Source of the DNA: a virus
Direction: 5' to 3' (one strand)
UHGV virus genome: UHGV-0181014
Length of the DNA: 14,759 nt
Every line of letters starts with the position of its first letter. The stretch's first letter is position 1. Shown here piece after piece: positions 1 through 14,759 of this stretch. The notes under the pieces are model-generated. The model saw only the letters and a program-made list of their open reading frames with translations. It made no database searches and was not told where the DNA came from. The position numbers and the translations under genes are program-made.

Positions 1-5
1 ATTTT

Positions 6-54
6 TGGTCGGCACGAGAGGATTTGAACCTCCGACCCCCGACACCCCATGACG
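6..54 (-). other. Prophage attachment-site core: truncated 3' end (49 nt) of a tRNA-Pro(GGG)-like gene, not a complete tRNA
   Basis: Reverse complement of 6-54 reads CGTCATGGGGTGTCGGGGGTCGGAGGTTCAAATCCTCTCGTGCCGACCA, i.e. anticodon loop, T-arm (GGTTCAAATCC), acceptor 3' strand and CCA of enterobacterial tRNA-Pro(GGG) as I recall it. The matching 5' acceptor strand (CGGCACG) and D-arm are absent from 55-90, so only the 3' part is present, as expected for an att direct repeat at a prophage/chromosome junction. Confidence 0.7.
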
Positions 55-378
55 CCGCTTGTAAAACGCTGAGAACCGTACCATTGCTGGTGGTAGGTAC
101 TATTCATATGTATAAACAAACAGTGCTTTTTTAGCAAAATCTGCTCTATATACATCAATGACTTAGGCGATGGTTTCTCCCCATTCTATTTAAGTGGAAT
201 AACTCAAAGAATCTGTTAGTTTTTCAAGGCGTGATAAAAGTAACAGTATGAGTTTGCAGATAAAAAATTTAGGTGATTTTCGATCAATGTCATAGCTTGG
301 CACTTGGCCGAGTTTAAACTGCATGGGATAACCACACTTTAGCTGCTGTGTGATGGAGTCTCATAAAAGGTGATAATA

Positions 379-1479
379 ATGTGCAATGTTGACGATACAG
401 CTCCCGATACTCAACCACCTCTCGAACTAAGCCAGGATGTGCAGGCGCTGATCAACAACGGTTTGGACTTTCTGGATAAAGCCCGTGAAGAATTGGAAGC
501 ATCAAAGCCTAAGTTCTCCGTCGTCAGCTTCTGGACGGCAGTAGAGATTTTACTAAAAGTACCTCTTGCGCATGAACACTGGTCGTTGGTCTGCAGTCCA
601 AAGAAACCAATAAAAAAGCAGGACTACTTAGCTGGTGATTTTCAGTCTGTGACCTATGAAGAAACTCGTAGTAGGCTTAAGGATGTACTTGAAAAACCAC
701 TAGATAAGGAAACGGATAGTGCTTTTGATAAGGTCAGAAAGCACCGCAACCGCGTGGTTCATTTCTACCATCCAACTTTTACTGCAGATGAACAGCGCCA
801 GATACTCAAAGAACAAGCGGATGCTTGGTTTGCTCTGAACAGGTTATTAAGGGAAGAATGGAAAGTCATTTTTGGAGTCAAACATAATTGGACGCTTGCT
901 TTTGGTGAGACTCGATTAATTAGGGGAAATGAATTTTATGCCCAAGTGCGGCTTAATCAGGTTAAACCTGAATTAGAATCTCTTGCAGAAAAGGGCATGC
1001 TAATTGGTACTTGTAATGAGTGCCATCAGCGTTCGTTAGTAACGGACACTAAAATAATTGGTAATGAAAAACGTGAACTTGAAGTTACGCGATGTAAGGT
1101 TTGCACTAGTGTTTTACGGCAAATTAATCTAGTTTGTCCCGACTGTGGGGAAGTTCAATTGCTTCAGGAGGGGGATGATGTTTTTGAATGTAGACGCTGC
1201 AACTACGCTCGGAGTAGATATGATTTGCTAGATGAGGAAATATTCCATAGTGTGGATGAACAGCTTCTCTCTGCATTTCCTGCTGGATGTACCAACTGCA
1301 TGAACCCTGAAAGTGTATGCAAATTTGGCGAAGGCTATCTCTGTACTCGGTGTTTATCCTATTACACTGAAATTCAGCAATGTAATAGTTGCAACCACTT
1401 GAGCGATAGTGTTCCTGAATTTAGTCATATTCGAGGATGTGAATTTTGTGATGGCGACCAGCGTTATTTTGATGACTGA
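379..1479 (+). CDS. Hypothetical protein: N-terminal HEPN-like domain (R-x4-H motif) fused to four C-terminal CxxC...CxxC zinc-ribbon modules; candidate defence/toxin cargo gene
   Basis: Long ORF 370-1479; preferred ATG at 379 preceded by AAAGG (366-370). Motif RKHRNRVVH (DNA ~736-762) fits the Rx4-6H HEPN signature. C-terminal ~150 aa carry eight CxxC pairs (CNEC/CKVC, CPDC/CRRC, CTNC/CTRC, CNSC/CEFC). GC roughly 40 percent, lower than the prophage backbone. Function is inference only. Confidence 0.6.
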   Translation: MCNVDDTAPDTQPPLELSQDVQALINNGLDFLDKAREELEASKPKFSVVSFWTAVEILLKVPLAHEHWSLVCSPKKPIKKQDYLAGDFQSVTYEETRSRLKDVLEKPLDKETDSAFDKVRKHRNRVVHFYHPTFTADEQRQILKEQADAWFALNRLLREEWKVIFGVKHNWTLAFGETRLIRGNEFYAQVRLNQVKPELESLAEKGMLIGTCNECHQRSLVTDTKIIGNEKRELEVTRCKVCTSVLRQINLVCPDCGEVQLLQEGDDVFECRRCNYARSRYDLLDEEIFHSVDEQLLSAFPAGCTNCMNPESVCKFGEGYLCTRCLSYYTEIQQCNSCNHLSDSVPEFSHIRGCEFCDGDQRYFDD

Positions 1480-1639: not shown

Positions 1640-2818
1640 CTAACTAGCTTTAATTTCTCCATGAGGAACTACGACCCAATCGATATGATTTTGGGTATAG
1701 ATCTTTGTTGATTTCGCATCACTATGTGCCATTCGTCCTTGCGGATCGATACCCTGCTGATCGAAAAGATGCGCTGCCAGCGCTCTAATTTCATGAAAGG
1801 TTGGTCTTTCGTCCATCGATAGATGGTCGCATAAACCTAGCTTGTCACGCGTAGCTGAAAATGACCGACTCAAATAGTCCGGTGCAACTTGACTAGGGTG
1901 TGAAACCTCTTTGCTGCGTTTAATCTGCCGTTCAGGGATCCTGTGAACGACAAACGGACTGGCCACATTATCTCGGCTATCGTCTATTATCCGTTTCAAC
2001 TCTTCCCCAATCGGGATTGCAACGTGAGATGCCTCTTTTTTTTGCACTTTCTGCCTGTGGATGTAGAGAGTCCCATAAATACCGTTTTCTGGTTGCGCTA
2101 ACCATACGCACCCGCAGATACCGTCTTTTGGCTCTCTTATGGAGTAACGGATCCGTGAGACCTCCAATCGTGCGTGTGTTGTCTGCAATGCCAAATCCAT
2201 AGCGGTTCGTAACCATGGTTCGGCTGCGCGCCTGATGGCTTTAAAGTTATCAAGTGAAAGGCGCTGGCGCTTCTTCTCTTCTGTCCTACGCATTTTTTTA
2301 CGGGTTGCCGGGTTATCGAACATTAGTGATTCATCGACCGCATAGGAAAATAATTTTTTAAGAAAGCTGACTTTCCTGTTTTGTACGTTTGCTGATGCTT
2401 CGGCATGGTAGTGGTTTATATAGGCGTTCACATGCTCCAGCTCAATATCGCAAGCTGGTATGTTGATGAAGAATTCTTTTACCCTCAGAGCATCGTTGTT
2501 CCAATCGTCGAGTGTATTCTGTGAAGGGCGCTCATTCTCAATCGCCCGCTCCATAATATGATCTACGTGTTCAGCAAATGGTTTTGCTTCCCCAGTTACA
2601 CCGCCAGATTCACGGACAAGTATTTCTACTGAAGGTACATTTTCAGGTCTCATTCTTAGGTTGTATTCACGGGCTATAGCGATCGCTACAGCCCTGTCTT
2701 TACCAATATTCTTTTTTTTCCCAGTTATGAGCGTAAATTTATAAACGCCGCGATCTTTATCGAATATTAGATATTCGGGTAGATGGCGGTATTCTCTTTT
2801 TCTTGGCCTGGCTGCCAT
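1640..2818 (-). CDS. int: Lambda-family tyrosine integrase
   Basis: 392-aa ORF. N-terminus MAARPRKREYRHLPEYLIF...GKDRAVAIAIAREYN parallels lambda Int arm-binding N-terminus (MGRRRSHERRDLPPNLYIR...GRDRRIAITEA). C-terminus PTFHEIRALAAHLF...HSDAKSTKIYTQ parallels lambda Int PPTFHELRSLSARLY...HKSDTMASQY with the catalytic tyrosine. Lies next to the tRNA-derived att core and is preceded by xis. Confidence 0.9.
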   Translation of the reverse strand: MAARPRKREYRHLPEYLIFDKDRGVYKFTLITGKKKNIGKDRAVAIAIAREYNLRMRPENVPSVEILVRESGGVTGEAKPFAEHVDHIMERAIENERPSQNTLDDWNNDALRVKEFFINIPACDIELEHVNAYINHYHAEASANVQNRKVSFLKKLFSYAVDESLMFDNPATRKKMRRTEEKKRQRLSLDNFKAIRRAAEPWLRTAMDLALQTTHARLEVSRIRYSIREPKDGICGCVWLAQPENGIYGTLYIHRQKVQKKEASHVAIPIGEELKRIIDDSRDNVASPFVVHRIPERQIKRSKEVSHPSQVAPDYLSRSFSATRDKLGLCDHLSMDERPTFHEIRALAAHLFDQQGIDPQGRMAHSDAKSTKIYTQNHIDWVVVPHGEIKAS

Positions 2819-2820
2819 GG

Positions 2821-3030
2821 TTAACCCTCACTGATAAGCTGGCGAACCGTATGATTAACCATTGAGTCGACCCCCCATTTTTCAGACTCGCAGACCCAAA
2901 CAGATCCGTCTACGATTTTGCCTGTGAGAAGTCCGTTTTCAACCCAACGTTTAATGGTTCGATTATCCGGGATCGAGTCTTTGGTAAATTCGCGTTTACC
3001 CCATTGACTCGCCTTCATAAGTTTTGCCAT
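2821..3030 (-). CDS. xis: Excisionase (lambda Xis-like)
   Basis: 69-aa ORF immediately upstream of int with a 2-nt gap. Motif TIKRWVENGLL...GKIVDGSVWV resembles lambda Xis (TVRRWVRE...KDGREYL). GGAGAG RBS 6 nt before the ATG. Confidence 0.75.
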   Translation of the reverse strand: MAKLMKASQWGKREFTKDSIPDNRTIKRWVENGLLTGKIVDGSVWVCESEKWGVDSMVNHTVRQLISEG

Positions 3031-3119: not shown

Positions 3120-4358
3120 TTACTTTTTCATCACCTTTTCAGCAACACCAGCAATTGCCTCAAGTCCATCAAACATTGCTGGTATATTATTTTCATTGTT
3201 TTGTATTGGACTAAAAATAAGAGCATCAAAAGAGTCTAAAACTTTCTCAATAGCAATGTTATTTTTTCTTCTATATTCAACATACCCATCAATGAAAGCA
3301 CATAAGCTGAGCCTTAGATCAATCTGCATAAGTTGAGTTCTTAAAGCCTTCGCTTCTAAATATGAAAGTCTGAAAAAATAAATAATTGCCATCTCAATAG
3401 TAATAAATGGGAATAGAATGAAGATCGCTGAATAATCTTTAGGATATAAATCAGGGAAAGAAAAATGGATTATTACAGCAATCACAGGAGCAATGAATAC
3501 AGTCCCAAATAAATTTTTATAATTCATTTCAGTTGTAGAAAGCTCTTTCTCTTTTTTTTCTTTTATTATGTTAAAACCAGAGCTTAACCCAACAAAATTA
3601 TACTCTGATTTTAAATTTCTCACACGCTCCTCTAGTGCCTTAATTTCATCCCTTGATTCATCCACGTATTTTAAATTAGCATCTGCTTCTAGTTTTCCAT
3701 CTACAATAGCTTTTTTAATGTCATTATAATTATCAGATATTAATGATATGGATGCTTTAGTGTCTTTGTTAATTTTATCAATAGCCAAATCTAAGTTGCT
3801 AGAAATTTCATCGAGAAACTTCCGTTTGTTTTCGTCGAGGTCTGATATAAAGTTTCTAGCATCAGTTAGTTTGTTACTGTTTAGTAACCACTTCATAAGT
3901 GAAATAGGTAGTTTGTCTCGAATCCATGAAAATTGGTATTTACCTTCATTATCCTTGAAAGTGTTTTCTAATAATGTCAATTTGCTGTCTGTGATAAAGT
4001 TAGGCGTGATAATGGAACGAGTGCCTGTCCAATAATAGTACTCGTACAATACTCTTAACAAGGTTGACAAAAAATCAATCTTGTCTTTCTTGTAATCGTC
4101 AACTTGAAATTCCATGTGCAACAATATATTGTCTTGATTAAAACCTGTATTCTCATCTAAATGTTGTGGGTTGTTATTTATTATTGATATAAAAGTCGAC
4201 CATGCTGAGTCCAATGTAGTATAGAATAAAGATATGCTATTATCTTTCTTTTTGGCGGATTTCTTGGACATTTCTTCAAACCTAATAAGATCTCTACTAA
4301 TTATAGTATTTGTTTCCTTTATTGAATTAAGTATTTTATTATCGCTATATAGTCCCAT
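3120..4358 (-). CDS. Hypothetical AT-rich membrane-anchored protein (412 aa, two predicted C-terminal TM helices); candidate abortive-infection or superinfection-exclusion cargo gene
   Basis: Uninterrupted 412-codon ORF in a segment of roughly 30 percent GC, against ~50 percent or more in flanking phage genes. Hydrophobic stretches FGTVFIAPVIAVIIHFSF and AIFILFPFITIEMAIIYFF near the C-terminus; coiled-coil-like segment ESRDEIKALEERVRNLKSEY. AAAAAGG RBS before the ATG at 4358. No recognisable catalytic motif. Confidence 0.7.
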   Translation of the reverse strand: MGLYSDNKILNSIKETNTIISRDLIRFEEMSKKSAKKKDNSISLFYTTLDSAWSTFISIINNNPQHLDENTGFNQDNILLHMEFQVDDYKKDKIDFLSTLLRVLYEYYYWTGTRSIITPNFITDSKLTLLENTFKDNEGKYQFSWIRDKLPISLMKWLLNSNKLTDARNFISDLDENKRKFLDEISSNLDLAIDKINKDTKASISLISDNYNDIKKAIVDGKLEADANLKYVDESRDEIKALEERVRNLKSEYNFVGLSSGFNIIKEKKEKELSTTEMNYKNLFGTVFIAPVIAVIIHFSFPDLYPKDYSAIFILFPFITIEMAIIYFFRLSYLEAKALRTQLMQIDLRLSLCAFIDGYVEYRRKNNIAIEKVLDSFDALIFSPIQNNENNIPAMFDGLEAIAGVAEKVMKK

Positions 4359-4439
4359 TTCTATACCTTTTTAAATATTATTATGTTTCATTGAGTGATG
4401 AGATATTTTACGATCAATTTTCCGGTTTTGCTTCATAAA

Positions 4440-4466
4440 ATCCCCACCCTTTCTAAGGAAGGGGAT
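4440..4466 (-). terminator. Putative intrinsic terminator downstream of the 275-aa early-left gene
   Basis: On the minus strand, imperfect GC-rich hairpin (GATCCCCTTCCTTAGAAAGGGTGGGGA) followed by UUUUAU, starting 10 nt after the stop of CDS 4476-5303. It would insulate the AT-rich cargo gene from early-left transcription. Confidence 0.4.
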
Positions 4467-4475
4467 CTAAATCTC

Positions 4476-5303
4476 TTATGGTTTAAATATTCCGATGAAA
4501 GTGTCCACTGATTCACCCTCGAACTTGCTGATCAGCAAATTGCGGAATTCGTTGGCGATCTCTTCTTCCTGGGCTTCAAGTTGGACGATGCGCAGAACAA
4601 AGCAGGGTTCATCGCTGGTCAGCAGGCTGTTACGCAAACTAAAGCGGCGTTCGCCCATACCTTCATACGGCACACATTTGAACTCGAACGCCACAGGCAT
4701 TACGTCTTTGCTGCTTGCTTCAACGCTTTGCATCAGGGATTTTTTACCAGCGAAATCACCAGTTTCATGGTCCTGCTGGGTTGCTTGCTGGATAGTGATA
4801 CGACGTACAGCCTGAGCTGCCTGGGAAATCTGCATCGTATTGCCATCAGCATCAAACGCCAGCAGGTAATCGCTCCAGTCTTCCAGCCATTCAGCGATTT
4901 GCTTTTGCTTCAGACGTTGACCGTCGATCTGCAGTAGCGCACGGAACGGGGCGGTTTTCTTTAGGGTGATTGAAGCAACGTTATCGGCGTGACCGGGATT
5001 ATCCAGGGTGCCGATGTTGAACACTGAACGAGCGGTCATGTTGTCAGCATCAATGAAGCAACGGGCTGGATCGCTGGCGCTGGCGTAACCTTTAGAATAA
5101 CGTGCGAAGTCGTCAATACTGGTTGTGGTCATTGCGCCACGGAAGCGGAAACGCTCCAGAGAAAAGCGCTCAAGGCTTTCAACGCCAGTACCTTCTGGCA
5201 ATAATGCGGTCGGGCAAGCCAGGTCCTGAATATCATTCAGGTGATAACCGGAAAGAACCAGGTCTTTGACCTGCTTGAAGGTACCGCTGTCTAACTGAGA
5301 CAT
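4476..5303 (-). CDS. Conserved prophage early-left protein, possibly YfdQ-like (DUF2303 family)
   Basis: 275-aa ORF with TAAGGAA RBS. Size and N-terminus (MSQLD...) match my recollection of E. coli CPS-53 YfdQ (274 aa); family assignment is from memory, not a search. Confidence 0.7.
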   Translation of the reverse strand: MSQLDSGTFKQVKDLVLSGYHLNDIQDLACPTALLPEGTGVESLERFSLERFRFRGAMTTTSIDDFARYSKGYASASDPARCFIDADNMTARSVFNIGTLDNPGHADNVASITLKKTAPFRALLQIDGQRLKQKQIAEWLEDWSDYLLAFDADGNTMQISQAAQAVRRITIQQATQQDHETGDFAGKKSLMQSVEASSKDVMPVAFEFKCVPYEGMGERRFSLRNSLLTSDEPCFVLRIVQLEAQEEEIANEFRNLLISKFEGESVDTFIGIFKP

Positions 5304-5359
5304 AAAAATTCCTTATTAACTGATGATCAAAGTGGTATCAGTGAGTTTGTTGTTGCGGA

Positions 5360-5731
5360 TCACTGAGCCGCTTTAAGCTTTCCATCCACCGCGCCAGTGA
5401 TCCCGAACAGCTGACCCTGATCTTCCTGCAGGATGGTGAGCTTCCCGCCTTTGTTGACCCACATCGGGGTTTCGGTTGTGTCCTCTTCGGATGCTTTACC
5501 ACGCGGTGTTGGGGTGCTGTAGTTCAGCTTGTGCTTGATCTTGACGCGCTTCTCTTCAACGGAATTACCCATGCGCTCAAAATCAAATGTGAGGACTACT
5601 TTGCCTTTGTTGCCGTTGTTCAGAACGCCAAGTGCGGTGGTATTAAGTGCTGCCGCGATTTTGTTCATGAACACGCCGGCATCCAGTTCGCCAAGAAAAT
5701 CTGGCACTACGGTCATGCGGTCATTACTCAT
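5360..5731 (-). CDS. Conserved small prophage protein (possibly YfdP-like), 124 aa
   Basis: Six-frame ORF 5360-5818 begins with TTG. The first ATG (5729-5731) has a strong GAGGG RBS 6 nt upstream, giving MSNDRMTVVPDFL.... It lies immediately upstream of, and co-oriented with, the YfdQ-like gene. Confidence 0.6.
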   Translation of the reverse strand: MSNDRMTVVPDFLGELDAGVFMNKIAAALNTTALGVLNNGNKGKVVLTFDFERMGNSVEEKRVKIKHKLNYSTPTPRGKASEEDTTETPMWVNKGGKLTILQEDQGQLFGITGAVDGKLKAAQ

Positions 5732-6236
5732 GGTTTTACCCTCGTTATGGCGGCTGCCACCGCCGAACTTTCTCCATACACAACAGAGAAGGGCACCTGC
5801 ATTTGTCGGCGACTGCAATCGCCATCCTCTTGCCCTGGTGGATTGGGTTATGAGCCCGTCGCCCGGTGATGCCCTTTTCTGTTGTGCCCTGAAAAAGGCT
5901 GGCGGTTACCGGACAAATGGGAAAACACCGGGCCGCCAGAACAGGGAGTTACTTGTTATTGCTTTGGCCTGCTTTTAACCACATCAGGCGCGGTGGTAGG
6001 TATCTTCGGGCGGGGTGCTAAGGGGGTGATTAGCCCTTGACCTTAACACTCCTGCTGGTTTTGGTATTCCTGGTTTGGGTATCGCCACCAGCTATAGGAA
6101 TTTGACTACGAGCTGCGGTTAATCAGGCCGCGCCTCTGTTACCCCTCCCGAAGACACCTGTCAGCGAATCATCCGGTTATTCATATGCCACCGGCGGCTA
6201 CTTCGTGGGCGTCCTGCCTGTTCGCTGTTGATGAAT

Positions 6237-6300
6237 AAAATCTAACTTAACTTAGCTTTTAGATCAAGAAAAAACACCAAACTATTCTTAGCTTGATGTT
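6237..6300 (-). promoter_or_regulatory. Putative oL/pL: operator repeats and leftward early promoter just downstream of the repressor gene
   Basis: CTAACTTAACTTAG (6243-6256) has the same CTAA-N6-TTAG form as CTAATCAAACTTAG in the cI-cro intergenic region. The 10-mer AATCTAACTT occurs here and, inverted, at 7002-7011. Minus-strand -35 TTGATC, 17-nt spacer, -10 TAGATT overlaps these repeats. Confidence 0.4.
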
Positions 6301-6321
6301 AAGAGGAAGGTTAGAGGTGGG

Positions 6322-6948
6322 TTAAAGCTCGTACTGAACGCCTTTGACAACGCCGATGATCAGGCAATTACCGTTAATTGAAATGTTTGGATAGCGTGGA
6401 TTTAAGGGAACTAAGAACTTTTGAGGCCCGTCGATGACAAGTTTTTTTACAGTAGCCTCGTTTGTCCCATCAAGCCTGGCTACGACTATCTTTCCATGAA
6501 GTGGCTCTGCATCTGGATCTACTATGACTGTTGCCCCTTCAGGGATTGTCGGGAGGCCATTAGGGTTTGTCATCGAATCACCTTTAACCTCCAATGCAAA
6601 GGAGCTATCCCCTATGCGGAGTGATGTCTCTATCCACTTATCTACTTCGCTGAAAACTTCTGCTGCTTTACATTCTGTAAACTGTCCAGCCTGAACCCAG
6701 GATATCACCGGAATCCTTCGCATCTTGGTTATCAGATTGCCTTCAAATTCAGTGCCATAAAGTATGTAATCAATTGATGTGTTGAAATACTTTGCAAGTT
6801 TCGCAAGTGACTCGCCTCCTGGCACATTAACGTCTTTTTCCCAATACCCAACCGCCACATCACTAACACCGCAGAACTTACCCAGTTCTTTCTGCGAGGT
6901 TTTGGTTATGCGCCTGAGAGCTTTGATGCGCTGACCGACAGTTTCCAT
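6322..6948 (-). CDS. CI-like prophage repressor (HTH_XRE N-terminal domain plus S24 LexA-like autopeptidase domain)
   Basis: 208-aa ORF. N-terminal HTH (QKELGKFCGVSDVAVGYWEKDVNVP), a probable Ala-Gly cleavage site (VQAGQF), and the S24 Ser/Lys dyad context (GDSM ... VKKL). Divergent from a Cro-like gene with operator palindromes between them. Confidence 0.85.
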   Translation of the reverse strand: METVGQRIKALRRITKTSQKELGKFCGVSDVAVGYWEKDVNVPGGESLAKLAKYFNTSIDYILYGTEFEGNLITKMRRIPVISWVQAGQFTECKAAEVFSEVDKWIETSLRIGDSSFALEVKGDSMTNPNGLPTIPEGATVIVDPDAEPLHGKIVVARLDGTNEATVKKLVIDGPQKFLVPLNPRYPNISINGNCLIIGVVKGVQYEL

Positions 6949-6974
6949 TTGAACACCATAAATAAATTAAAAGG

Positions 6975-7046
6975 CTAAGCAATCTTAGTTTTTATTGACC
7001 AAAGTTAGATTGGTTATTAATATCTAATCAAACTTAGCTAAGGAGG
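6975..7046. promoter_or_regulatory. oR-like operator cluster with rightward promoter (pR) for the Cro-like gene
   Basis: Inverted repeats built on CTAAG/CTTAG half-sites: CTAAGcaatCTTAG (6975-6988), CTAATcaaaCTTAG (7024-7037), CTTAGCTAAG (7033-7042). Candidate pR: -35 TTGACC (6995-7000), 17-nt spacer, -10 TAATAT (7018-7023). AGGAGG RBS at 7041-7046 before the ATG at 7051. Confidence 0.55.
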
Positions 7047-7050
7047 CGTT

Positions 7051-7278
7051 ATGACAACCGATGATATTGAAAACTACTTCGGCAGTACTGAGAAGGTTGC
7101 CGAATTTTTTGGAATCACAAGCGAGGCTGTTTACCAGTGGCGTAATAGAACTGGTCGCCTTATCCCAAAAGGGCGTGCAGCTGAAGCAGCATATCGAACC
7201 GGGGGGAAATTGGTTTTTCATCCCGACCTTTACGAAAAGCGTAGCGATGCTTCAGTAAAACTCAAACCACAGGAATAA
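7051..7278 (+). CDS. Cro-like small HTH regulator (Cro/YdaS-like)
   Basis: 75-aa ORF divergent from the repressor, strong AGGAGG RBS. Motif AEFFGITSEAVYQWRNRTGRLIP fits the Cro/YdaS-type HTH pattern. Confidence 0.75.
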   Translation: MTTDDIENYFGSTEKVAEFFGITSEAVYQWRNRTGRLIPKGRAAEAAYRTGGKLVFHPDLYEKRSDASVKLKPQE

Positions 7279-7288
7279 GGGGGGAGCT

Positions 7289-7840
7289 GTGGGTAACGAA
7301 CCTATTTGGAAAGTCGAACGTCAGCCAGCCTGGCTGGTGGCGGCGATAAAAAAAACGATCACCGATCTTCCTGGTGGTTATGCCGAGGCGGCGGAATGGT
7401 TGGGCGTGACAGAGAACGCATTGTTCAACCGCCTTCGTGTTGACGGCGACCAAATCTTCCCGCTGGGCTGGGCAATGGTTTTACAACGTGCTGGTGGTTC
7501 AACTCATATCGCTGATGCCGTTGCGCGCCATTCTCAGGGCGTATTTGTACCGCTGGCAGATGTTGATGATCTGGATAACGCCGATATCAACCAGCGCCTG
7601 ATGGAATCAATCGAATGGATAGGCCGTCATTCTAATTTTGTACGTAAAGCCACGGCTGATGGGGTGATTGACGCAGAGGAGCGCGCTCAGATTGAGGAAA
7701 ACAGCTATCAGGTGATCGCGAAGTTCCAGGAGCACGTAGCACTTCTTTATCGAGTTTTTTGTGTCGCTGAAAAGAGTGACGCCCGCGAGTGTGCAGCTCC
7801 GGGCGCCTTGGCGAACAACTCTTCGAGTATGGAGAAATAA
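7289..7840 (+). CDS. CII-like phage regulatory protein (183 aa)
   Basis: GTG-initiated ORF directly after the Cro-like gene, the canonical cII position. Sequence such as AAEWLGVTENALFNRLR and size are consistent with the phage CII/CP76-type regulator family as I recall it. Function by position plus weak motif recall. Confidence 0.55.
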   Translation: MGNEPIWKVERQPAWLVAAIKKTITDLPGGYAEAAEWLGVTENALFNRLRVDGDQIFPLGWAMVLQRAGGSTHIADAVARHSQGVFVPLADVDDLDNADINQRLMESIEWIGRHSNFVRKATADGVIDAEERAQIEENSYQVIAKFQEHVALLYRVFCVAEKSDARECAAPGALANNSSSMEK

Positions 7841-8012
7841 TCCGCATGAGCAGTTTAACGGCTTTTAACCGTCTACCGCAACTCAGGATGATCCCGGTTT
7901 CGGGTACTCCGTTGTTTCGGTATGAACGCAGATTATCAAACCGCTGGGTTCCGTGTAACCACAGTAGGGCGGTTTCAATTGTGGGGGTCTATAACCGGAG
8001 GGCAAAACGCCT

Positions 8013-8192
8013 GTGCGCGAACTTAACCGAAGGTTCAAAGACCACCGCGGAGTGTCTGTCCGTGTTATCCGCTGGGAGCCAGAAACACAGCGCGTTATCT
8101 ACCTGCGTGATGGCTACCCGCACGAATGCTTCAGCCCACTTGAGCATTTCAGGCAAAAGTTCAGGGAGATAACGGACGATCATGAGCACTAA
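8013..8192 (+). CDS. Putative small protein (59 aa, GTG start) overlapping the start of the replication gene
   Basis: Frame opens after TAA at 7992-7994. GTG at 8013 preceded by GGAGG (7996-8000, 12-nt spacing). The translation VRELNRRFKDHRGVSVRVIRWEPETQRVIYLRDGYPHECFSPLEHFRQKFREITDDHEH looks protein-like, whereas the overlapping 127-aa frame (7789-8172) is Ser/Ala/Thr/Arg-rich in this interval. It ends 10 nt into the next gene. Confidence 0.3.
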   Translation: MRELNRRFKDHRGVSVRVIRWEPETQRVIYLRDGYPHECFSPLEHFRQKFREITDDHEH

Positions 8193-9039
8193 ATTAACCG
8201 GCTACGTATGGGATGGTTGCGCGGCGTCGGGCATGAAGTTGTCTAGTGTCGCGATCATGGCGCGCCTTGCTGATTTCAGCAGCGATGAGGGGGTGTGCTG
8301 GCCGTCTATTGAAACTATCGCTCGCCAGCTTGGCGCAGGGACGAGCACTATCAGAACGGCAATCGCTAAGCTTGAAAAAGATGGCTGGCTCACGCGTACA
8401 CAGCGCCGTAATGGTAACCGTAATGCGTCGAACGTGTACCGCCTGAATGTGGCGAAACTTCAGGCTGCCGCATTTTCTCAACTGTCAGATTCTGACGCGT
8501 CAAAACCTGACGCATCAAATTTTGACACCTCAAAAACTGACCCGTCGAAATCTGGCAAAAACGGCGGTTTTGACCCGTCAGAATCTGGCGGGGATCCGTC
8601 AGTAAAATCAAAACAAGATCCACAAGTAACTTCAAAACCCTCTTGTCCGGTTGCGGCGCAACCAGACCCTGAAGTCGTGATTACTGACCAGGCAATTTTG
8701 GTTCTGACCCATTTGAACCAGATAAGCGGATCCCGGTATCAGAAATCAAAAACATCCCTGGAGAACATCCGTGCCCGACTGCGTGAGGGATACAGCGTTG
8801 CAGACCTGCAACTTGTTATCGACCTGAAGCATGAACACTGGCACGAGAACGACGAGCAGTACCAGTACATGCGCCCGGAAACGCTGTTCGGCCCGAAGAA
8901 ATTCGAGAGCTATCTGCAAAGCGCTACCCGCTGGGAGCAGAAGGGACGGCCTAAACGCGCTGACTGGGGAGCGAAAAAGCGCGATGTGATGGCTTTTGGT
9001 CCGGTTGAAACAACGATTCCAGAGGGGTTCAGAGGATGA
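8182..9039 (+). CDS. Replication initiator (O-like): N-terminal winged-helix/HTH domain, acidic Ser/Asp linker, conserved phage C-terminal domain
   Basis: 285-aa ORF. N-terminal LSSVAIMARLADFSSDEGVCWPSIETIARQLGAGTSTIRTAIAKLEKDGWL is a typical HTH replication-protein fold signature. The C-terminal ILVLTHLNQISGSRYQ...LVIDLKHEHWHENDEQYQYMRPETLFGPKKFESYL resembles the conserved phage C-terminal domain of replication proteins. Contains tandem iterons; the true start may be 8182 or the internal ATG at 8233. Confidence 0.75.
   Translation: MSTKLTGYVWDGCAASGMKLSSVAIMARLADFSSDEGVCWPSIETIARQLGAGTSTIRTAIAKLEKDGWLTRTQRRNGNRNASNVYRLNVAKLQAAAFSQLSDSDASKPDASNFDTSKTDPSKSGKNGGFDPSESGGDPSVKSKQDPQVTSKPSCPVAAQPDPEVVITDQAILVLTHLNQISGSRYQKSKTSLENIRARLREGYSVADLQLVIDLKHEHWHENDEQYQYMRPETLFGPKKFESYLQSATRWEQKGRPKRADWGAKKRDVMAFGPVETTIPEGFRG
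8478..8640. repeat. Origin-like iteron array inside the replication gene, followed by an A-rich tract
   Basis: Tandem 15-bp units: TGACGCGTCAAAACC (8493-8507), TGACGCATCAAATTT (8508-8522), TGACACCTCAAAAAC (8523-8537), TGACCCGTCGAAATC (8538-8552), TGACCCGTCAGAATC (8571-8585), plus degenerate copies at 8478-8492 and 8586-8600. TGACGCGTCA is itself palindromic. The array is followed by an A-rich stretch (8601-8640), analogous to ori-lambda within gene O. Confidence 0.6.
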
Positions 9040-9917
9040 CGTTAAACAAATATTGCCAGGCGCTGGCGGCACTGCGCAGCAAGCCAGCCCACGAACTGAA
9101 AGAGGTTGGCGATCAGTGGCGGACACCGGATCTGCTTTTTTGGGGTATCAACGCGCTATTTGGTCCATTAGTTCTGGACTTGTTTGCTGACGACGACAAC
9201 GCGAAGTGCCCGGCATGGTACACCGCCGAAGATAACGCGCTGACACAGAACTGGTCTGAACGTCTGGATGAACTGGGCGGCGCGGCTTTTGCCAATCCTC
9301 CATATAGCCGCTCCCAGTATCACGACAAGCAGGCGATCACGGGTATGACACACATCATGAATCACACCATGGACATGCGTGAAAGAGGTGGTCGCTATAT
9401 TTACCTGGTGAAGTCTGCCACAAGTGAAACATGGTGGCCGGAAGATGCCGATCACATCATGTTTATTCGTGGTCGTATTGGGTTCGATCTGCCTGTGTGG
9501 TTTGTACCTGCTGACGAAAAACAGAAACCCACCAGCGCGTTTTTTGCCGGTGCCATAGCTGTATTCGATAAGTCGTGGCGGGGTGAGCAGTTCAGCTATA
9601 TCAACCGCACAGAACTGGAGGAAAAAGGGCGGGCATTTATGGCTTTGGCTCAATTCGCCGTTGGTAAAGAGCAAACAATTGCAATGCAGGCAGCCAGGGA
9701 ACCAGCAGCAACACCGGAAACTGAGTCACGAATCTGGCCTCTCGAGGTTGGTCTGGTGTTTAACCAGGTGGAAGGCGTTGATGTATTGAGCGAGGCCCAG
9801 CAGAACAAACTGAAAGCCAACATCAATCAACTCTGGCTGGAACGAACGGCCACCAGCGAAATTATCACAATTGCGCGTGGTCTTGTTGGCAGCATGCAGG
9901 GGGCAACCCATGCGTGA
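9036..9917 (+). CDS. Phage-type DNA N6-adenine methyltransferase (Dam-like, orphan)
   Basis: 293-aa ORF with the catalytic NPPY motif (FANPPYS) and the N-terminal QWRTPDLLF...LVLDLFADDDNAKCPAWYT signature characteristic of phage N6-adenine methyltransferases. ATGA start/stop overlap with the replication gene. Confidence 0.85.
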   Translation: MTLNKYCQALAALRSKPAHELKEVGDQWRTPDLLFWGINALFGPLVLDLFADDDNAKCPAWYTAEDNALTQNWSERLDELGGAAFANPPYSRSQYHDKQAITGMTHIMNHTMDMRERGGRYIYLVKSATSETWWPEDADHIMFIRGRIGFDLPVWFVPADEKQKPTSAFFAGAIAVFDKSWRGEQFSYINRTELEEKGRAFMALAQFAVGKEQTIAMQAAREPAATPETESRIWPLEVGLVFNQVEGVDVLSEAQQNKLKANINQLWLERTATSEIITIARGLVGSMQGATHA

Positions 9918-11907
9918 GATTATCGTTGATAACTTTGCTGGTGGCGGTGGTGCATCAACGGGTATTGAACTGGCGATCGGACGCAGCGTGGATATTGCGA
10001 TCAACCACGACGAAAACGCCATTGCGATGCACAAGACGAACCACCCTGACACACTGCATTACTGTGAATCCGTATTTGACGTGGATCCGGTAGCCGCCAC
10101 CGGCGGCAATCCTGTTGGCCTGGCATGGTTTAGCCCGGACTGCCGACACTTCTCAAAGGCCAAAGGCGCAAAGCCTGTCAAAAAAGAGATACGCGGTCTG
10201 GCCTGGATTGTTCTGCGTTGGGCACTGGCTAAGCGACCGCGCGTGATGATGCTGGAGAACGTGGAAGAGTTCAAAACGTGGGGACCGTTAATTGACATCC
10301 CGCCTAAACCTGATTTGCCGGAAGCCCTTATGGCGGATTTTATTGGCCCGGTTTACCCTGGAAATAGTCGCCCAGACCCTGCCCGCACTGGAGAAACATT
10401 CAATGCATTTGTCGGCATGCTGTCCACTGGTATTCCTGCTGACCACCCGGCACTGTCAGAGGTTTGTGAGTTTCTGTCTATTGAAAGAGGTAGCGAGCAG
10501 GCGCAACAGCTGGTGGATGGGCTTGGATATGATGTTGATTATCGCGAACTGCGCGCGTGTGATTACGGAGCACCGACGATCCGCAAACGTTTCTTCATGG
10601 TTATGCGCTGCGATGGTTTCCCTATTCAGTGGCCTGCTGTTACCCATGGGGATCCTAAGTCTCTGGAGGTGCAGAGCGGCAGGCTGATGCCATGGCGTAC
10701 CGCTGCGGAATGTATCGACTGGAATGTTCCGGCCCTGTCCATCTTCGACCGCAAAAAACCATTGGCTGAAAATACGCTCAAACGCATCGCTCGTGGTATC
10801 CAGCGGTTTGTGATCGAGAGCGCGTCGCCGTTCATCGTTAAGTGCAACCACACGACGACCAAAGGGAAATACGACTGTTTCCGTGGTCAGGCGCTGGGCG
10901 AGCCTTTGCAGACCATTACGAAAACCCATGGCTACGCGATTGCCGTCCCACACCTGACAAAGTTCCGTACTGGCGCAACCGGGCAGCCCGTTACCGAACC
11001 CGTCCCGACGGTAACCGCTGGCACATCAAAACGTCCAGGTGGGAACGGGCATGCACTCGGGATTGTTGAGGCTGCACTGACGCCATTCCTGGCGGGTAAC
11101 GGTGGTAGTGAATACCAGGCGAAACCGCGCCCGCTGGATAAACCTGCTCATACCATTCTGAAGCAATCCCGCGCCTGTCTTGTTGCGCCAGTGATAGCCC
11201 GCCAGTTTGGGGCCAGCGTCGGCCACCGGGCAGACGAACCGAGCGCAACCATCACCGCTGGTGGTGGCGGTAAATCTCAACTGGTAACGCCTACGCTGAT
11301 CCAGATGGGTTATGGCGAACGACCTGGACAAGAACCGCGTGTGCTGCGGCTGGATAACCCGCTGGGGACCGTTACTGCAGGTGGAAATAAATTCGCGACG
11401 GTGACCGCGTTCCTGGCTAAACACTACGGCGGTAACTATACGGGACCGGGTGTCAGTATGGATGAACCCGCGCACTCAGTGACCACTGTCGACCATCATG
11501 CAGTAGTTGCCTCTCATCTGGTGAAACTGCGTGGAACATGCCGCGACGGGCAACGCCTTGATGTGCCAATGCCAACAATCACTGCTGGTGGCCAACACGT
11601 GGGTGAGGTACGCACATTTCTCGAGACGTATTGCGGGGAAAGTGACGATGAATGGCTGGTAACGATCGATGGGGTTAAATACCAGATCGTTGATATCGGA
11701 ATGCGCATGTTGCAGCCGCATGAACTCTACAAAGCGCAGGGCTTCCCGGATGGTTACGTTATTGATCAGGACTACCGTGGAAATCGCTATGCAAAAGATA
11801 AGCAGGTAGCCCGCTGCGGTAATGCGGTACCACCACCATTCGCCAGGGCGCTGGTGGAGGCAAATCTTCCGGAACTGTGTGCAGTGCAACAGCAGGAGGT
11901 GGCATGA
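9910..11907 (+). CDS. DNA cytosine-5 methyltransferase (large, 665 aa) with an expanded, internally repeated variable region
   Basis: Motif I FAGGGG (DNFAGGGGAS), catalytic Cys context SPDCRHFS, motif VI LENV, motif VIII IRKRFFMV, motif X GNAVPPP near the C-terminus. ATG at 9910 preceded by CAGGGGG and overlapping the Dam-like stop by 8 nt. The ~300-aa region between motifs VIII and X contains about seven repeats of a P-x-T-[IV]-T-A-G-G-like module. Confidence 0.85.
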   Translation: MREIIVDNFAGGGGASTGIELAIGRSVDIAINHDENAIAMHKTNHPDTLHYCESVFDVDPVAATGGNPVGLAWFSPDCRHFSKAKGAKPVKKEIRGLAWIVLRWALAKRPRVMMLENVEEFKTWGPLIDIPPKPDLPEALMADFIGPVYPGNSRPDPARTGETFNAFVGMLSTGIPADHPALSEVCEFLSIERGSEQAQQLVDGLGYDVDYRELRACDYGAPTIRKRFFMVMRCDGFPIQWPAVTHGDPKSLEVQSGRLMPWRTAAECIDWNVPALSIFDRKKPLAENTLKRIARGIQRFVIESASPFIVKCNHTTTKGKYDCFRGQALGEPLQTITKTHGYAIAVPHLTKFRTGATGQPVTEPVPTVTAGTSKRPGGNGHALGIVEAALTPFLAGNGGSEYQAKPRPLDKPAHTILKQSRACLVAPVIARQFGASVGHRADEPSATITAGGGGKSQLVTPTLIQMGYGERPGQEPRVLRLDNPLGTVTAGGNKFATVTAFLAKHYGGNYTGPGVSMDEPAHSVTTVDHHAVVASHLVKLRGTCRDGQRLDVPMPTITAGGQHVGEVRTFLETYCGESDDEWLVTIDGVKYQIVDIGMRMLQPHELYKAQGFPDGYVIDQDYRGNRYAKDKQVARCGNAVPPPFARALVEANLPELCAVQQQEVA

Positions 11908-12290
11908 AACTTGTGCTCCCGTTCCCTCCAAGCGTGAACACGTACTGGCGCGCCCCTAATAAGGGGCCGCTGGCCGGTCGTCACCTCATTAGCGCTGATG
12001 GCCGTAAATACCAGAGCGCTGCCTGCGTGGCGATCATTGAGCAATTACGACGTCTCCCGAAGCCTTCGACTGAATTAGCAGCGGTAGAAATCACTCTGTA
12101 CCCGCCGGATGCGCGCCGCCGGGATATCGATAATTACAACAAAGCCCTGTTTGACGCGCTGACGCATGCGGGTGTCTGGGAAGACGACAGCCAGATTAAG
12201 CGCATGCTGGTGGAATGGGGACCCGTTGTGCCGAAAGGTCGGGTAGAGATAACGATCAGCAGATATGAACCGGCGGGTGCAGCCGCCTGA
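11904..12290 (+). CDS. rusA: RusA-like Holliday junction resolvase
   Basis: ATG at 11904 with AGGAGGTGG RBS, overlapping the methyltransferase stop (ATGA). LPFPPSVNTYWR and RRRDIDNYNKALFDALTHAGVWEDDSQI closely parallel E. coli RusA ([40 protein letters not shown]). Confidence 0.85.
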   Translation: MKLVLPFPPSVNTYWRAPNKGPLAGRHLISADGRKYQSAACVAIIEQLRRLPKPSTELAAVEITLYPPDARRRDIDNYNKALFDALTHAGVWEDDSQIKRMLVEWGPVVPKGRVEITISRYEPAGAAA

Positions 12291-12303
12291 TATGGAGAAA
12301 AGT

Positions 12304-12990
12304 ATGAGCCAGTTAATCGTGAATGGTGTTGTAACAATGTCCAGCCGTGATATTGCGGATCTGGTTCAGAGTAAACACAGTGACGTGAAACGTTCGGCTG
12401 AGCGTCTTGTTGCTGCGGGAATTTTAACCGCGCCGTTGGCGCAGTTCGATTTTGAGCATAACGGTAATGTGTACCAGGAGTATCGTTTTAACAAACGCGA
12501 ATCTCTGGTGATTGTTGCCAGACTTTCACCTGAATTTACCGCCGCGGTTGTCGATCGCTGGCAGGAACTGGAAGAAGGGCAGAGTGTCAGTGTTCCCCGC
12601 TCATTGCCGGAAGCGCTTCGCCTGGCTGCTGATTTAGCCGAGCAGAAAGAGCAACTGACCATCCAACTGGCAGCCGCGGCGCCAAAAGTGGAGTTTGTTG
12701 ATCGTTATTGCTCTGCAAAAGGCTCCATGTCATTCCGGCAGGTAGCCAAATTGCTCAACGCAAAAGAAACTGAGTTTCGTCTGTTCCTTATCGAACGCAA
12801 TATCCTGTATCGCCTCGGCGGCACACTTACCCCCATGGCGCAGCACATTTCCGCGGGAAGATTTGAAGTTAAGACCGGAACATCGAGCACATCCAATCAC
12901 GCATTCAGCCAGACGCGTTTCACTGCCAAGGGAGTACGCTGGATTGGTGGTTTGTGGGCTGAACATATTGCGGGGGGGCAGGCGGCGTGA
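12304..12990 (+). CDS. Antirepressor-type protein (Rha-family N-terminal domain plus KilA-C/ANT C-terminal domain)
   Basis: ATG at 12304 preceded by GGAGAAAAG. N-terminus LIVNGVVTMSSRDIADLVQSKHSDVKRSAERL fits the Rha regulatory-protein pattern. C-terminus FRQVAKLLNAKETEFRLFLIERNILYR...GVRWIGGLWAEHIAG fits the KilA-C antirepressor domain as recalled. Confidence 0.65.
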   Translation: MSQLIVNGVVTMSSRDIADLVQSKHSDVKRSAERLVAAGILTAPLAQFDFEHNGNVYQEYRFNKRESLVIVARLSPEFTAAVVDRWQELEEGQSVSVPRSLPEALRLAADLAEQKEQLTIQLAAAAPKVEFVDRYCSAKGSMSFRQVAKLLNAKETEFRLFLIERNILYRLGGTLTPMAQHISAGRFEVKTGTSSTSNHAFSQTRFTAKGVRWIGGLWAEHIAGGQAA

Positions 12991-13982
12991 GGGCTTTGTT
13001 AACTCCTGAAGTCGCCCATCGCATGGGGATTGTGTTATTTCGTCCCGGCGCGGAACTGATGCACCTCTTCATGCGCGGTCGCGTTCTTCTCGAACCTGAA
13101 CCAGAAGAAATGGCGTCATTCAGTACAGGGGCTGTTCCCGCAGCCATTCAGCCGCTGGCTGATGATCCTGTAATGCGGCAGGTATTCGAGAATGAACGGG
13201 TTATTCAGCGTGCCGGCGGGATTTCTTCCCTTGAGCAATGGCTGAGTTCTCGGTTTGAATGCCAGTGGCCACATTCAACGTGGCACGACAAGAACTTCAC
13301 AACAATGCGGCACCCACCAGGAAGCATTCGCCTGTGCTGGCATTGCGATCACACTTTGTCGGGGCAGCATACCGAACAGCTTGCAGGTATAGCGGCCGGA
13401 AACCTGGTATCCTGGATTCTGGAAGTCATTCGGCGTGATTCTGGTTTTCCCGAGTCGCATATCCTGACGCTTCCGGAACTGTGCTGGTGGATGGTCAGAA
13501 ACGACCTGGCTGATGTTATTCCGGAAAGCGTTGCGCACAAAGGGCTGCGCCTTCCGGATGAGAAGATCCGCTCTGTCATGAGGGAAAGCGACATAGTGCC
13601 TTCCTCGTCAGCAACCAGACTCGTGCAGGAGAAGGCGAAGAAGATCCTCACGCTCTCTGTTGATCCTGAGTCGCCAGAGTCTTTTATGCTCAGGCCAAAA
13701 CGTCGCCGCTGGATAAATGAGACGTACACCCGCTGGGTTAAAACACAACCCTGTGAGTGTTGCCGACGGCCAGCAGATGATCCGCACCATATCGTAGGGC
13801 ACGGTATGGGGGGGACAGCAACAAAAGCCCATGACCTCTTCGTGATCCCTCTGTGCAGAGAGTGCCACGACGAGTTACACGCCGATGTACCAGCATTCGA
13901 GCAGAGGCATGGTACGCAGCTTGAGTTGCTACTGCGTTTTATGGATCGGGCGCTGGCGATCGGCGTAATTGCGAAAGCTTAA
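12987..13982 (+). CDS. DUF968/YdfU-like nin-region protein with C-terminal HNH-like Cys/His motif
   Basis: 331-aa ORF with GTG start overlapping the preceding stop (GTGA). C-terminal CECCRRPADDPHHIVGHGMGG...CRECHDELH is a zinc-binding HNH-like arrangement. Position and size match prophage YdfU-type proteins as I recall them. Confidence 0.65.
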   Translation: MRALLTPEVAHRMGIVLFRPGAELMHLFMRGRVLLEPEPEEMASFSTGAVPAAIQPLADDPVMRQVFENERVIQRAGGISSLEQWLSSRFECQWPHSTWHDKNFTTMRHPPGSIRLCWHCDHTLSGQHTEQLAGIAAGNLVSWILEVIRRDSGFPESHILTLPELCWWMVRNDLADVIPESVAHKGLRLPDEKIRSVMRESDIVPSSSATRLVQEKAKKILTLSVDPESPESFMLRPKRRRWINETYTRWVKTQPCECCRRPADDPHHIVGHGMGGTATKAHDLFVIPLCRECHDELHADVPAFEQRHGTQLELLLRFMDRALAIGVIAKA

Positions 13983-14001
13983 GCGTATGGAGAAGAACAG
14001 G

Positions 14002-14601
14002 ATGACACCACATCAACGCCGCAATCATTTTGAAGCACTGGGTAAAGCAGCATCTGCTCCGCGTAAAAGCTGGCTGGGTAAAAGCATTCTTCTGACGGGG
14101 ATCCAATCCGGATGGATTAAATCCCTGCTCACCACATGGGGCGAGGGTGTGGGAGGAAAAACTGCACCCCGTATGCCGCGGGGCCACGCCTGCTGGAATG
14201 TACTAAGAGGTCGTAACTGGTCAGATAAGGCACTGGACCGCTTCACTGCTGCGTTGAATCAGGCACGAGAAGAGGGATTCCGTGGACAGCAGGCAATGAA
14301 CAGGGCACATAGTATTCTGTGGCCGCAGTCACCTGCCAGTGTGATTGATGAAGCCCTGCATAATGATGATGTCGATTTTGTTGAGCAATGCGTGCTACAG
14401 GCACTGGATATAAACGATCCTGTTTATGTTGTTGGTCTTCAGTATTACACCACTCGAAAAAAAATCTCAGACATCACCCGGGAACTGCAGGTAATCGCGC
14501 CATGGCTGACTGATGGGGAGGCAAGAAAGCGCGTGCGCTGGTGCCTGGAAATATTCAGAGCGAAGACCTTTTTGGCAGCACGAAAACAGTTATCTGAATA
14601 A
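14002..14601 (+). CDS. Putative late-gene antiterminator (Q-like), assigned mainly by position
   Basis: ORF 13969-14601 begins with TTG. The ATG at 14002 has GGAG 9 nt upstream. It sits after the nin-like genes and immediately before a candidate late promoter. I do not recognise a lambda-Q zinc finger, so the assignment is positional and tentative. Confidence 0.4.
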   Translation: MTPHQRRNHFEALGKAASAPRKSWLGKSILLTGIQSGWIKSLLTTWGEGVGGKTAPRMPRGHACWNVLRGRNWSDKALDRFTAALNQAREEGFRGQQAMNRAHSILWPQSPASVIDEALHNDDVDFVEQCVLQALDINDPVYVVGLQYYTTRKKISDITRELQVIAPWLTDGEARKRVRWCLEIFRAKTFLAARKQLSE

Positions 14602-14650
14602 ACACACTGAACTCAATTTTAGCTATTAATGCTATTTCTTGATAATGGAG

Positions 14651-14678
14651 TTGAAAATGGGCCAGAAAATCAGATAAT
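14651..14678 (+). promoter_or_regulatory. Candidate late promoter (pR'-like) downstream of the Q-like gene
   Basis: -35 TTGAAA (14651-14656), 16-nt spacer, -10 GATAAT (14673-14678), in the AT-rich intergenic region after the stop at 14601. Confidence 0.35.
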
Positions 14679-14759
14679 CCATTCATGCTTGGCAGAGCTG
14701 CGCCGCGATGGCAGCGACGAAAAGCGAACAATTTGAATATAACGAGAACCCCGCCAGCG

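Follow-up and report, generated by a model that had tools for sequence, protein, structure and literature searches.

Evidence for an int-proximal prophage junction in the proL tRNA-Pro(GGG) gene of Citrobacter

We analyzed a 14,759-nt stretch of viral DNA (UHGV virus genome UHGV-0181014; hereafter, the window), the left end of which very probably represents the int-proximal junction of a ~42-kb lambdoid prophage integrated in the Citrobacter proL tRNA-Pro(GGG) gene, between narP and yejM (probability, approximately 0.93). A displaced tRNA fragment, the unoccupied chromosomal site (attB), the phage attachment site (attP), the recombinant junction, and an integrase (Int) with its domains and active-site motifs were each observed directly. 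The features of the window are listed below.

1..54, unstranded: the portion within the window of the 56-bp core common to attB and attP; the block starts 2 bp left of base 1
6..54, minus strand: displaced 3' fragment of the proL tRNA-Pro(GGG) gene, gene positions 29..77, from the anticodon stem to CCA
44..50, minus strand: anticodon loop, ATGGGGT on the tRNA strand (anticodon at 46..48); putative strand-exchange (overlap) region
55..378, unstranded: phage-derived int-side att arm, up to the first cargo ORF (120/120 with attP on contig L004, 16/120 with the yejM side of attB)
379..1479, plus strand: 366-aa cargo ORF, candidate defence gene (PADLOC HEC-08, full length, E=8.9e-167, with DUF3644)
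1640..2818, minus strand: integrase, 392 aa, lambda-type heterobivalent tyrosine recombinase (Pfam, lambda Int structures, motifs, PHROG integrase)
2821..3030, minus strand: 69-aa Xis-like ORF (directly upstream of int; size; weak PHROG excisionase match, E=6e-4)
3120..14759, unstranded: remaining lambdoid early region (Pfam; mosaic similarity to temperate phages LLS, Flotzy, Eeyore, phiNP, and ST64B)
6322..6948, minus strand: CI-type S24/HTH repressor (Pfam)
7051..7278: Cro (Pfam)

Results

A fragment of tRNA-Pro(GGG) at the start of the window

The window begins with ATTTT (bases 1..5), which is followed by TGGTCGGCACGAGAGGATTTGAACCTCCGACCCCCGACACCCCATGACG at 6..54. Read on the minus strand, the latter segment is CGTCATGGGGTGTCGGGGGTCGGAGGTTCAAATCCTCTCGTGCCGACCA, and it is identical at 49/49 positions with the 3' end of the 77-nt Citrobacter proL tRNA-Pro(GGG) gene called by ARAGORN at unoccupied sites. 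The 49-mer has a single exact match in the window, and a chance match as the source of the fragment was rejected, since none was expected in 200 shuffles with up to 3 mismatches allowed. The 5' 28 nt of the gene have no copy anywhere in the window according to the sequence search, and ARAGORN called no tRNA in the window. Rfam gave a partial tRNA match of 15 bits, which is sub-threshold, at 9..54 on the minus strand. The sequence from base 55 rightward is non-tRNA. The position of the left end of the fragment in the gene should be noted. The first-pass annotation had described a 49-nt 3' piece of a tRNA-Pro(GGG) gene on the minus strand, starting at the anticodon loop. The piece is there in its full length, but its start had been placed too far downstream: the fragment begins at gene position 29, so that it includes 4 nt of the anticodon stem on the 5' side of the loop.

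Comparison of the junction with the empty site and attP

Contigs carrying the element were collected by means of the exact 366-aa protein sequence, and empty sites, along with the occupied contigs L067 and L068, were collected by means of the CcmH sequence of the left flank. The junction was found in the same form as in the window in 7 independent contigs (L003, L005, L006, L007, L009, L067, and L068). To the left of the junction, the occupied contigs have the chromosomal region napGHBC-ccmABCDEFGH-narP. NarP and CcmH of this flank are identical to proteins recorded under the name Citrobacter, indicating that the host is Citrobacter. The empty attB, arranged as narP, proL tRNA-Pro(GGG), and yejM, was found in six Citrobacter contigs with identical CcmH (L062-L066 and L069). 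In these related strains, narP is followed by one complete tRNA-Pro(GGG) gene and then by yejM-yejL-yejK-rplY, and the empty site that the first-pass annotation had pointed to is one intact proL gene between narP and yejM. No complete tRNA was called at the junction in the 7 occupied contigs, which extend beyond the window on the left, or in the contig carrying attP.

The attP site is located on L004, a 41.7-kb contig from another sample, in which tail genes and the genes for DinI, UmuD, UmuC, and an SRAP peptidase lie left of the core. Over 11,479 bp, the window shows 100% identity both with integrated contigs and with the attP-bearing contig L004, indicating that the same phage was captured both in the integrated form and in the attP configuration. 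L004 could be a tandem lysogen instead of an excised circle; attP is displayed either way.

The exact identity block between attB (L066) and attP (L004) is 56 bp long and consists of the 49 tRNA bases and 7 bp past CCA. To the right of window base 54, the identity between attB and attP extends for 0 bp. The left arm of the junction matches attB at 116/120 positions and attP at 44/120, whereas the right arm matches attP at 120/120 and attB at 16/120. These values support the interpretation of the window junction as the attB-left/attP-right recombinant that would be expected from integrase-mediated exchange between attB and attP, judging from the sequences of the arms. The junction is the int-proximal one, B-O-P' in lambda nomenclature, and in the tRNA orientation it is the downstream junction with the displaced fragment. 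Two proposals of the first-pass annotation, namely that the junction is an att site produced by integration into the tRNA gene and that the left edge of the element lies at the start of the window, agree with these results: attB, attP, and the recombinant arms were all found, and the 56-bp block is bordered by the narP-side chromosome on the left and by the phage arm on the right.

Integrase, Xis-like ORF, and crossover

The int gene is situated where it had been expected from the first reading, about 1.6 kb inside the element (1640..2818, minus strand). The Arm-DNA-bind_1 domain of Int scores 24.9 bits (cut-off, 22.0), and two SAM-like families are also above the Pfam curated cut-offs, while the Phage_integrase catalytic family of Pfam scores 21.7 bits, just under its cut-off of 27.1. 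Int aligns with lambda Int structures over lambda residues 3-326 (E=1.6e-12). We take the catalytic residues of lambda Int to be R212, K235, H308/R311, H333, and Y342. The sequences FHEIR, MAH-SD, and KIYTQN in Int are aligned with H308/R311, H333, and Y342, respectively. A Lys residue is aligned with K235, while R212 and the first Arg of Int are no more than one alignment column apart. The 69-aa ORF directly upstream is kept beside int in the prophage of E. coli LD91-1 and in phages Eeyore and Flotzy, and it probably encodes the excisionase, judging from its position, its size, and the PHROG match.

The position of strand exchange was considered using a scan for a pattern composed of the phage-side arm and the core. 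The scan gave 50 loci, one from a genome collection and 49 from viral or metagenome sequences (L013-L061). Among the 50 loci, the same core is found with at least 10 unrelated classes of int-side arms. Because the tRNA identity ends 0-10 nt past the anticodon loop across these classes, the crossover most likely takes place in the 7-nt anticodon loop (window 44..50). In a search for arm-type Int sites, the exact 8-mers common to four related attP regions were those of the terminator stem only, and the repeats in attP of L004 are only short two-copy ones.

Terminator hairpins of the phage and of the native gene

An intrinsic-terminator hairpin of attP is found at 9590..9617 of L004 on the minus strand. 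It starts 15 nt after the tRNA 3' half and has a folding energy of -16.1 kcal/mol. The native proL gene also has a hairpin (L066, ~7926..7956), which starts 13 nt after CCA and has an energy of -16.2 kcal/mol according to direct folding. This native hairpin was not called in the terminator scan, probably because its T-run was counted as stem. The phage and native stems differ by one compensated pair (CCAACC/GGTTGG versus CCAGCC/GGCTGG). With its equivalent hairpin, the phage supplies a replacement 3' half together with a replacement terminator for the split gene.

Several attP cores at the scanned loci have a base change in their tRNA part; one example is CTCCGCCCCCC in place of CTCCGACCCCC in L014, L018, L023, L045, L046, L058, and L059. 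If the crossover takes place in the anticodon loop, integration would write such a base change of attP into the host tRNA.

Far end of the prophage

In the closed genome of E. coli LD91-1, the prophage, the Int of which is 90% identical to that of the window, lies between yejO and yejM. The tRNA fragment adjoins yejO and int, whereas a complete annotated tRNA-Pro adjoins yejM, 40,082 bp away, and the ends of the prophage form a 57-bp exact direct repeat. Junctions of the far type, in which a phage arm is joined to a complete tRNA-Pro(GGG), are also found in the metagenome contigs L044, L049, and L054. We infer that a far junction also exists on the yejM side in the genome from which the window derives. 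The occupied contigs carrying the phage of the window all end ~14.4-14.8 kb into the prophage, and the arm of this phage joined to a Citrobacter yejM flank was found at 0 of the 49 viral and metagenome loci in the scan. Neither of the two findings that would have spoken against the junction according to the first-pass annotation, a complete tRNA across the position in longer assemblies or the lack of another copy of the core, applies as far as the contigs reach.

The ends of the contigs should be noted separately. At least three independent assemblies, two integrated (L003 and L005) and one with attP (L004), end ~14.4-14.8 kb right of the core. This suggests that assembly breaks past DUF968 and the downstream ORFs (window ~14,400..14,759), at a repeat or a strain-variable region.

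Two candidates for the far junction were rejected. P0001, the closest relative returned by the search with the SRAP protein, occupies another site, beside an autotransporter gene and with no tRNA. The other candidate, Citrobacter braakii ATCC 51113 (L011, NZ_NAEW01000002.1), is the sole match from the genome collection in the scan, and it is not a clean far junction but a composite site with a 55-nt fragment. In L011, the core is located at 4225..4273, and the tail/UmuD end abuts this 55-nt tRNA-Pro fragment, beyond which a 274-aa unknown ORF, an SRAP gene, and a porin gene are found. The 8-kb locus contains no complete tRNA. Two elements probably lie at proL in L011, in a composite or tandem arrangement.

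Cargo ORF and early region

The 366-aa ORF is located between the att core and int and is outside the recombination machinery. Apart from the PADLOC match, it belongs to a PHROG of unknown function and has no above-threshold match in Pfam, and some NCBI records label it 'hsdR'. A GTG start (ORF 370..1479) was rejected, since the corresponding product is not on record, whereas that from the ATG start at 379 is. The ORF is absent in Eeyore and Flotzy, in which int directly follows the core, and E. coli LD91-1 has a different ORF in the slot between att and int. The slot beside attP thus looks like an exchangeable cargo slot. At the loci L013-L061, at least 10 unrelated int-side arms follow the phage-side arm and the tRNA-Pro core, indicating that modules have been shuffled extensively around a single attachment site.

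A broader idea, which we consider tentative and rather unlikely as a whole, is that the int-proximal att arm serves as an exchangeable cargo slot, occupied here by the HEC-08 candidate, and that, separately, lysogeny may subtly rewrite or re-regulate the host tRNA-Pro(GGG). The latter part is conceivable because proL receives its 3' half and its terminator from the phage and because some related attP cores carry base changes in the tRNA part.

Other genes of the early region are an unknown 412-aa ORF and those for YfdQ, YfdP, a CII-like protein, an O-like replication protein, RusA, an antirepressor, and DUF968. The DNA of the window shows mosaic similarity, at ~78-83% identity, to sequenced temperate phages whose hosts are E. 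coli, Citrobacter, and Salmonella. A 293-aa Dam-type N6-adenine methylase gene followed by an overlapping 678-aa C5-cytosine methylase gene occupies 9036..11907 on the plus strand. The pair is an unusually large methylation module among lambdoid early regions.

Alternative explanations

The junction might be an internal boundary in a tandem array at proL instead of the outer edge of a single prophage. The gene hosts many different elements with the same core, and in the composite locus of C. braakii ATCC 51113 a 55-nt fragment lies between two phage-like blocks, as an array would have it. We nevertheless regard this arrangement as improbable for the window, because the sequence to the left of the junction is always housekeeping chromosome, matching the left arm of the empty site at 116/120. 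Since the left side is chromosome in every junction contig, the window contains the outermost narP-side junction; a tandem partner, if any, would be on the yejM side. A phage-carried tRNA pseudogene or an assembly chimera, formed with no site-specific integration, is scarcely credible. Some phages do contain tRNA genes or fragments, and the fragment lies 5 nt from the start of the window, so that the window alone gives no left context. This context is, however, provided by at least 7 independently assembled contigs, which share the junction with the Citrobacter narP/ccm/nap region on the left. Furthermore, the limits of the fragment coincide with those of the attB/attP identity block, the arms are recombinant, and the related prophage in the closed E. 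coli genome has a matching direct repeat at both ends.

It might also be supposed that the element is a decayed, immobile prophage remnant that has lost excision, its tRNA fragment being a fossil att scar. The window shows no more than 14.8 kb of the element, the occupied contigs stop before the far end, and the search of four related attP regions with exact 8-mers found no arm-type sites, all of which would suit a remnant. However, on L004 the identical phage is joined across the core to its own tail/SRAP end, pointing to a form that is circular, replicating, or in tandem. The domains and active-site motifs of Int are preserved, and there are no interruptions in the ORFs of the repressor, cro, cII, replication, and regulatory genes. 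In addition, among Citrobacter genomes that share the same CcmH sequence, the site is empty in some and occupied in others. These observations make a remnant very improbable, less so than a pseudogene or chimera and somewhat more so than a tandem array. Integration of a lambdoid prophage into proL, with its int-proximal junction at the start of the window, is the reading that we prefer.

Discussion

In the integration model that we prefer, attP carries the last 49 nt of the tRNA and the 7 nt that follow, together with a terminator hairpin of its own, and the lambda-type Int would recombine attP with the identical stretch of proL. Strand exchange would take place in the anticodon loop, which is flanked by the inverted repeat of the anticodon stem. 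The tRNA gene would thereby be rebuilt at the int-distal end from the native 5' 28 nt and the phage-supplied 3' half and terminator, while the original 3' half would be displaced to the int-proximal end beside narP, where it is seen as window 6..54. Excision would require Int together with the small Xis-like protein, the ORF for which directly precedes int. Since the same phage is also found in the attP configuration, the element is probably still mobile, as far as can be judged from contig sequences, and the phage may be active at present.

The left boundary of the prophage is fixed to the base, as the block that starts 2 bp before the window and ends at base 54, and the host (Citrobacter) and the target gene (proL) are identified. 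The junction offers no new principle; it adds one more well-resolved case to the textbook kind of prophage junction in a tRNA gene. Its practical value lies in annotation and in the definition of the att sites for this group of Citrobacter and E. coli phages.

The tRNA-Pro gene beside yejM is a phage integration site in Shigella flexneri, where a CP4-57-type integrase adjoins the intact tRNA (PMC4924310), and the tDNAs used in Klebsiella include pro2A (bioRxiv 10.1101/2020.11.02.365908). A literature search for proL with prophage and for the names Eeyore and Flotzy returned nothing specific, and no paper was found on the Citrobacter phage of the window.

The prophage of E. coli LD91-1 (NZ_CP042585.1, 1564671-1604834), with similar prophages in other E. 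coli, uses the same tRNA target and the same 49-nt core. Besides the 90% identical Int, it shares the Xis-like ORF and the YfdQ/YfdP module, and its displaced fragment is likewise int-proximal, with the rebuilt tRNA beside yejM. It differs in the host genus, in the presence of yejO between the site and narP, in its int DNA, which is only ~80% identical, and in its own late region, which is Mu/P2-like with a sheathed tail. The sequenced temperate Escherichia phages Eeyore (PP925821) and Flotzy (PP925827) have Ints 77-78% identical to that of the window. In both phages, the core and a terminator-like hairpin lie between the DinI/UmuD end and int; the att bases were compared in Eeyore only, where the tRNA identity stops 3 nt earlier (CATG|TCAC). 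Unlike the window, neither has a cargo ORF between att and int, and their early genes are mosaic relatives with ~78-80% identity.

The resemblance to lambda lies in the heterobivalent Int with an N-terminal arm-binding domain, in the placement of int and a small upstream xis-like gene beside attP, and in the lambdoid layout of the immunity and replication genes. The two Ints are only 27% identical, however, and the attachment sites are different: lambda attaches at a 15-bp core between gal and bio, whereas the phage of the window targets a tRNA gene, with which it shares an identity block of 56 bp.

Classes of tRNA att sites according to sublocation were reportedly described by Williams in 2002. 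In Islander, the restored tRNA and the displaced 3' fragment are the stated basis for finding islands; a 3' fragment is present in 3,760 of 3,919 islands, and attP is anticodon-centred in 2,083 islands (PMC4383910). The anticodon-centred class is also discussed in the study that covers Klebsiella (bioRxiv 10.1101/2020.11.02.365908). The junction in the window resembles this class (Islander class A) in that the split tRNA would be restored, the displaced 3' fragment marks the end of the element (PMC4383910), and the identity block extends from the anticodon stem-loop to past CCA; between the two, there is no difference in kind.
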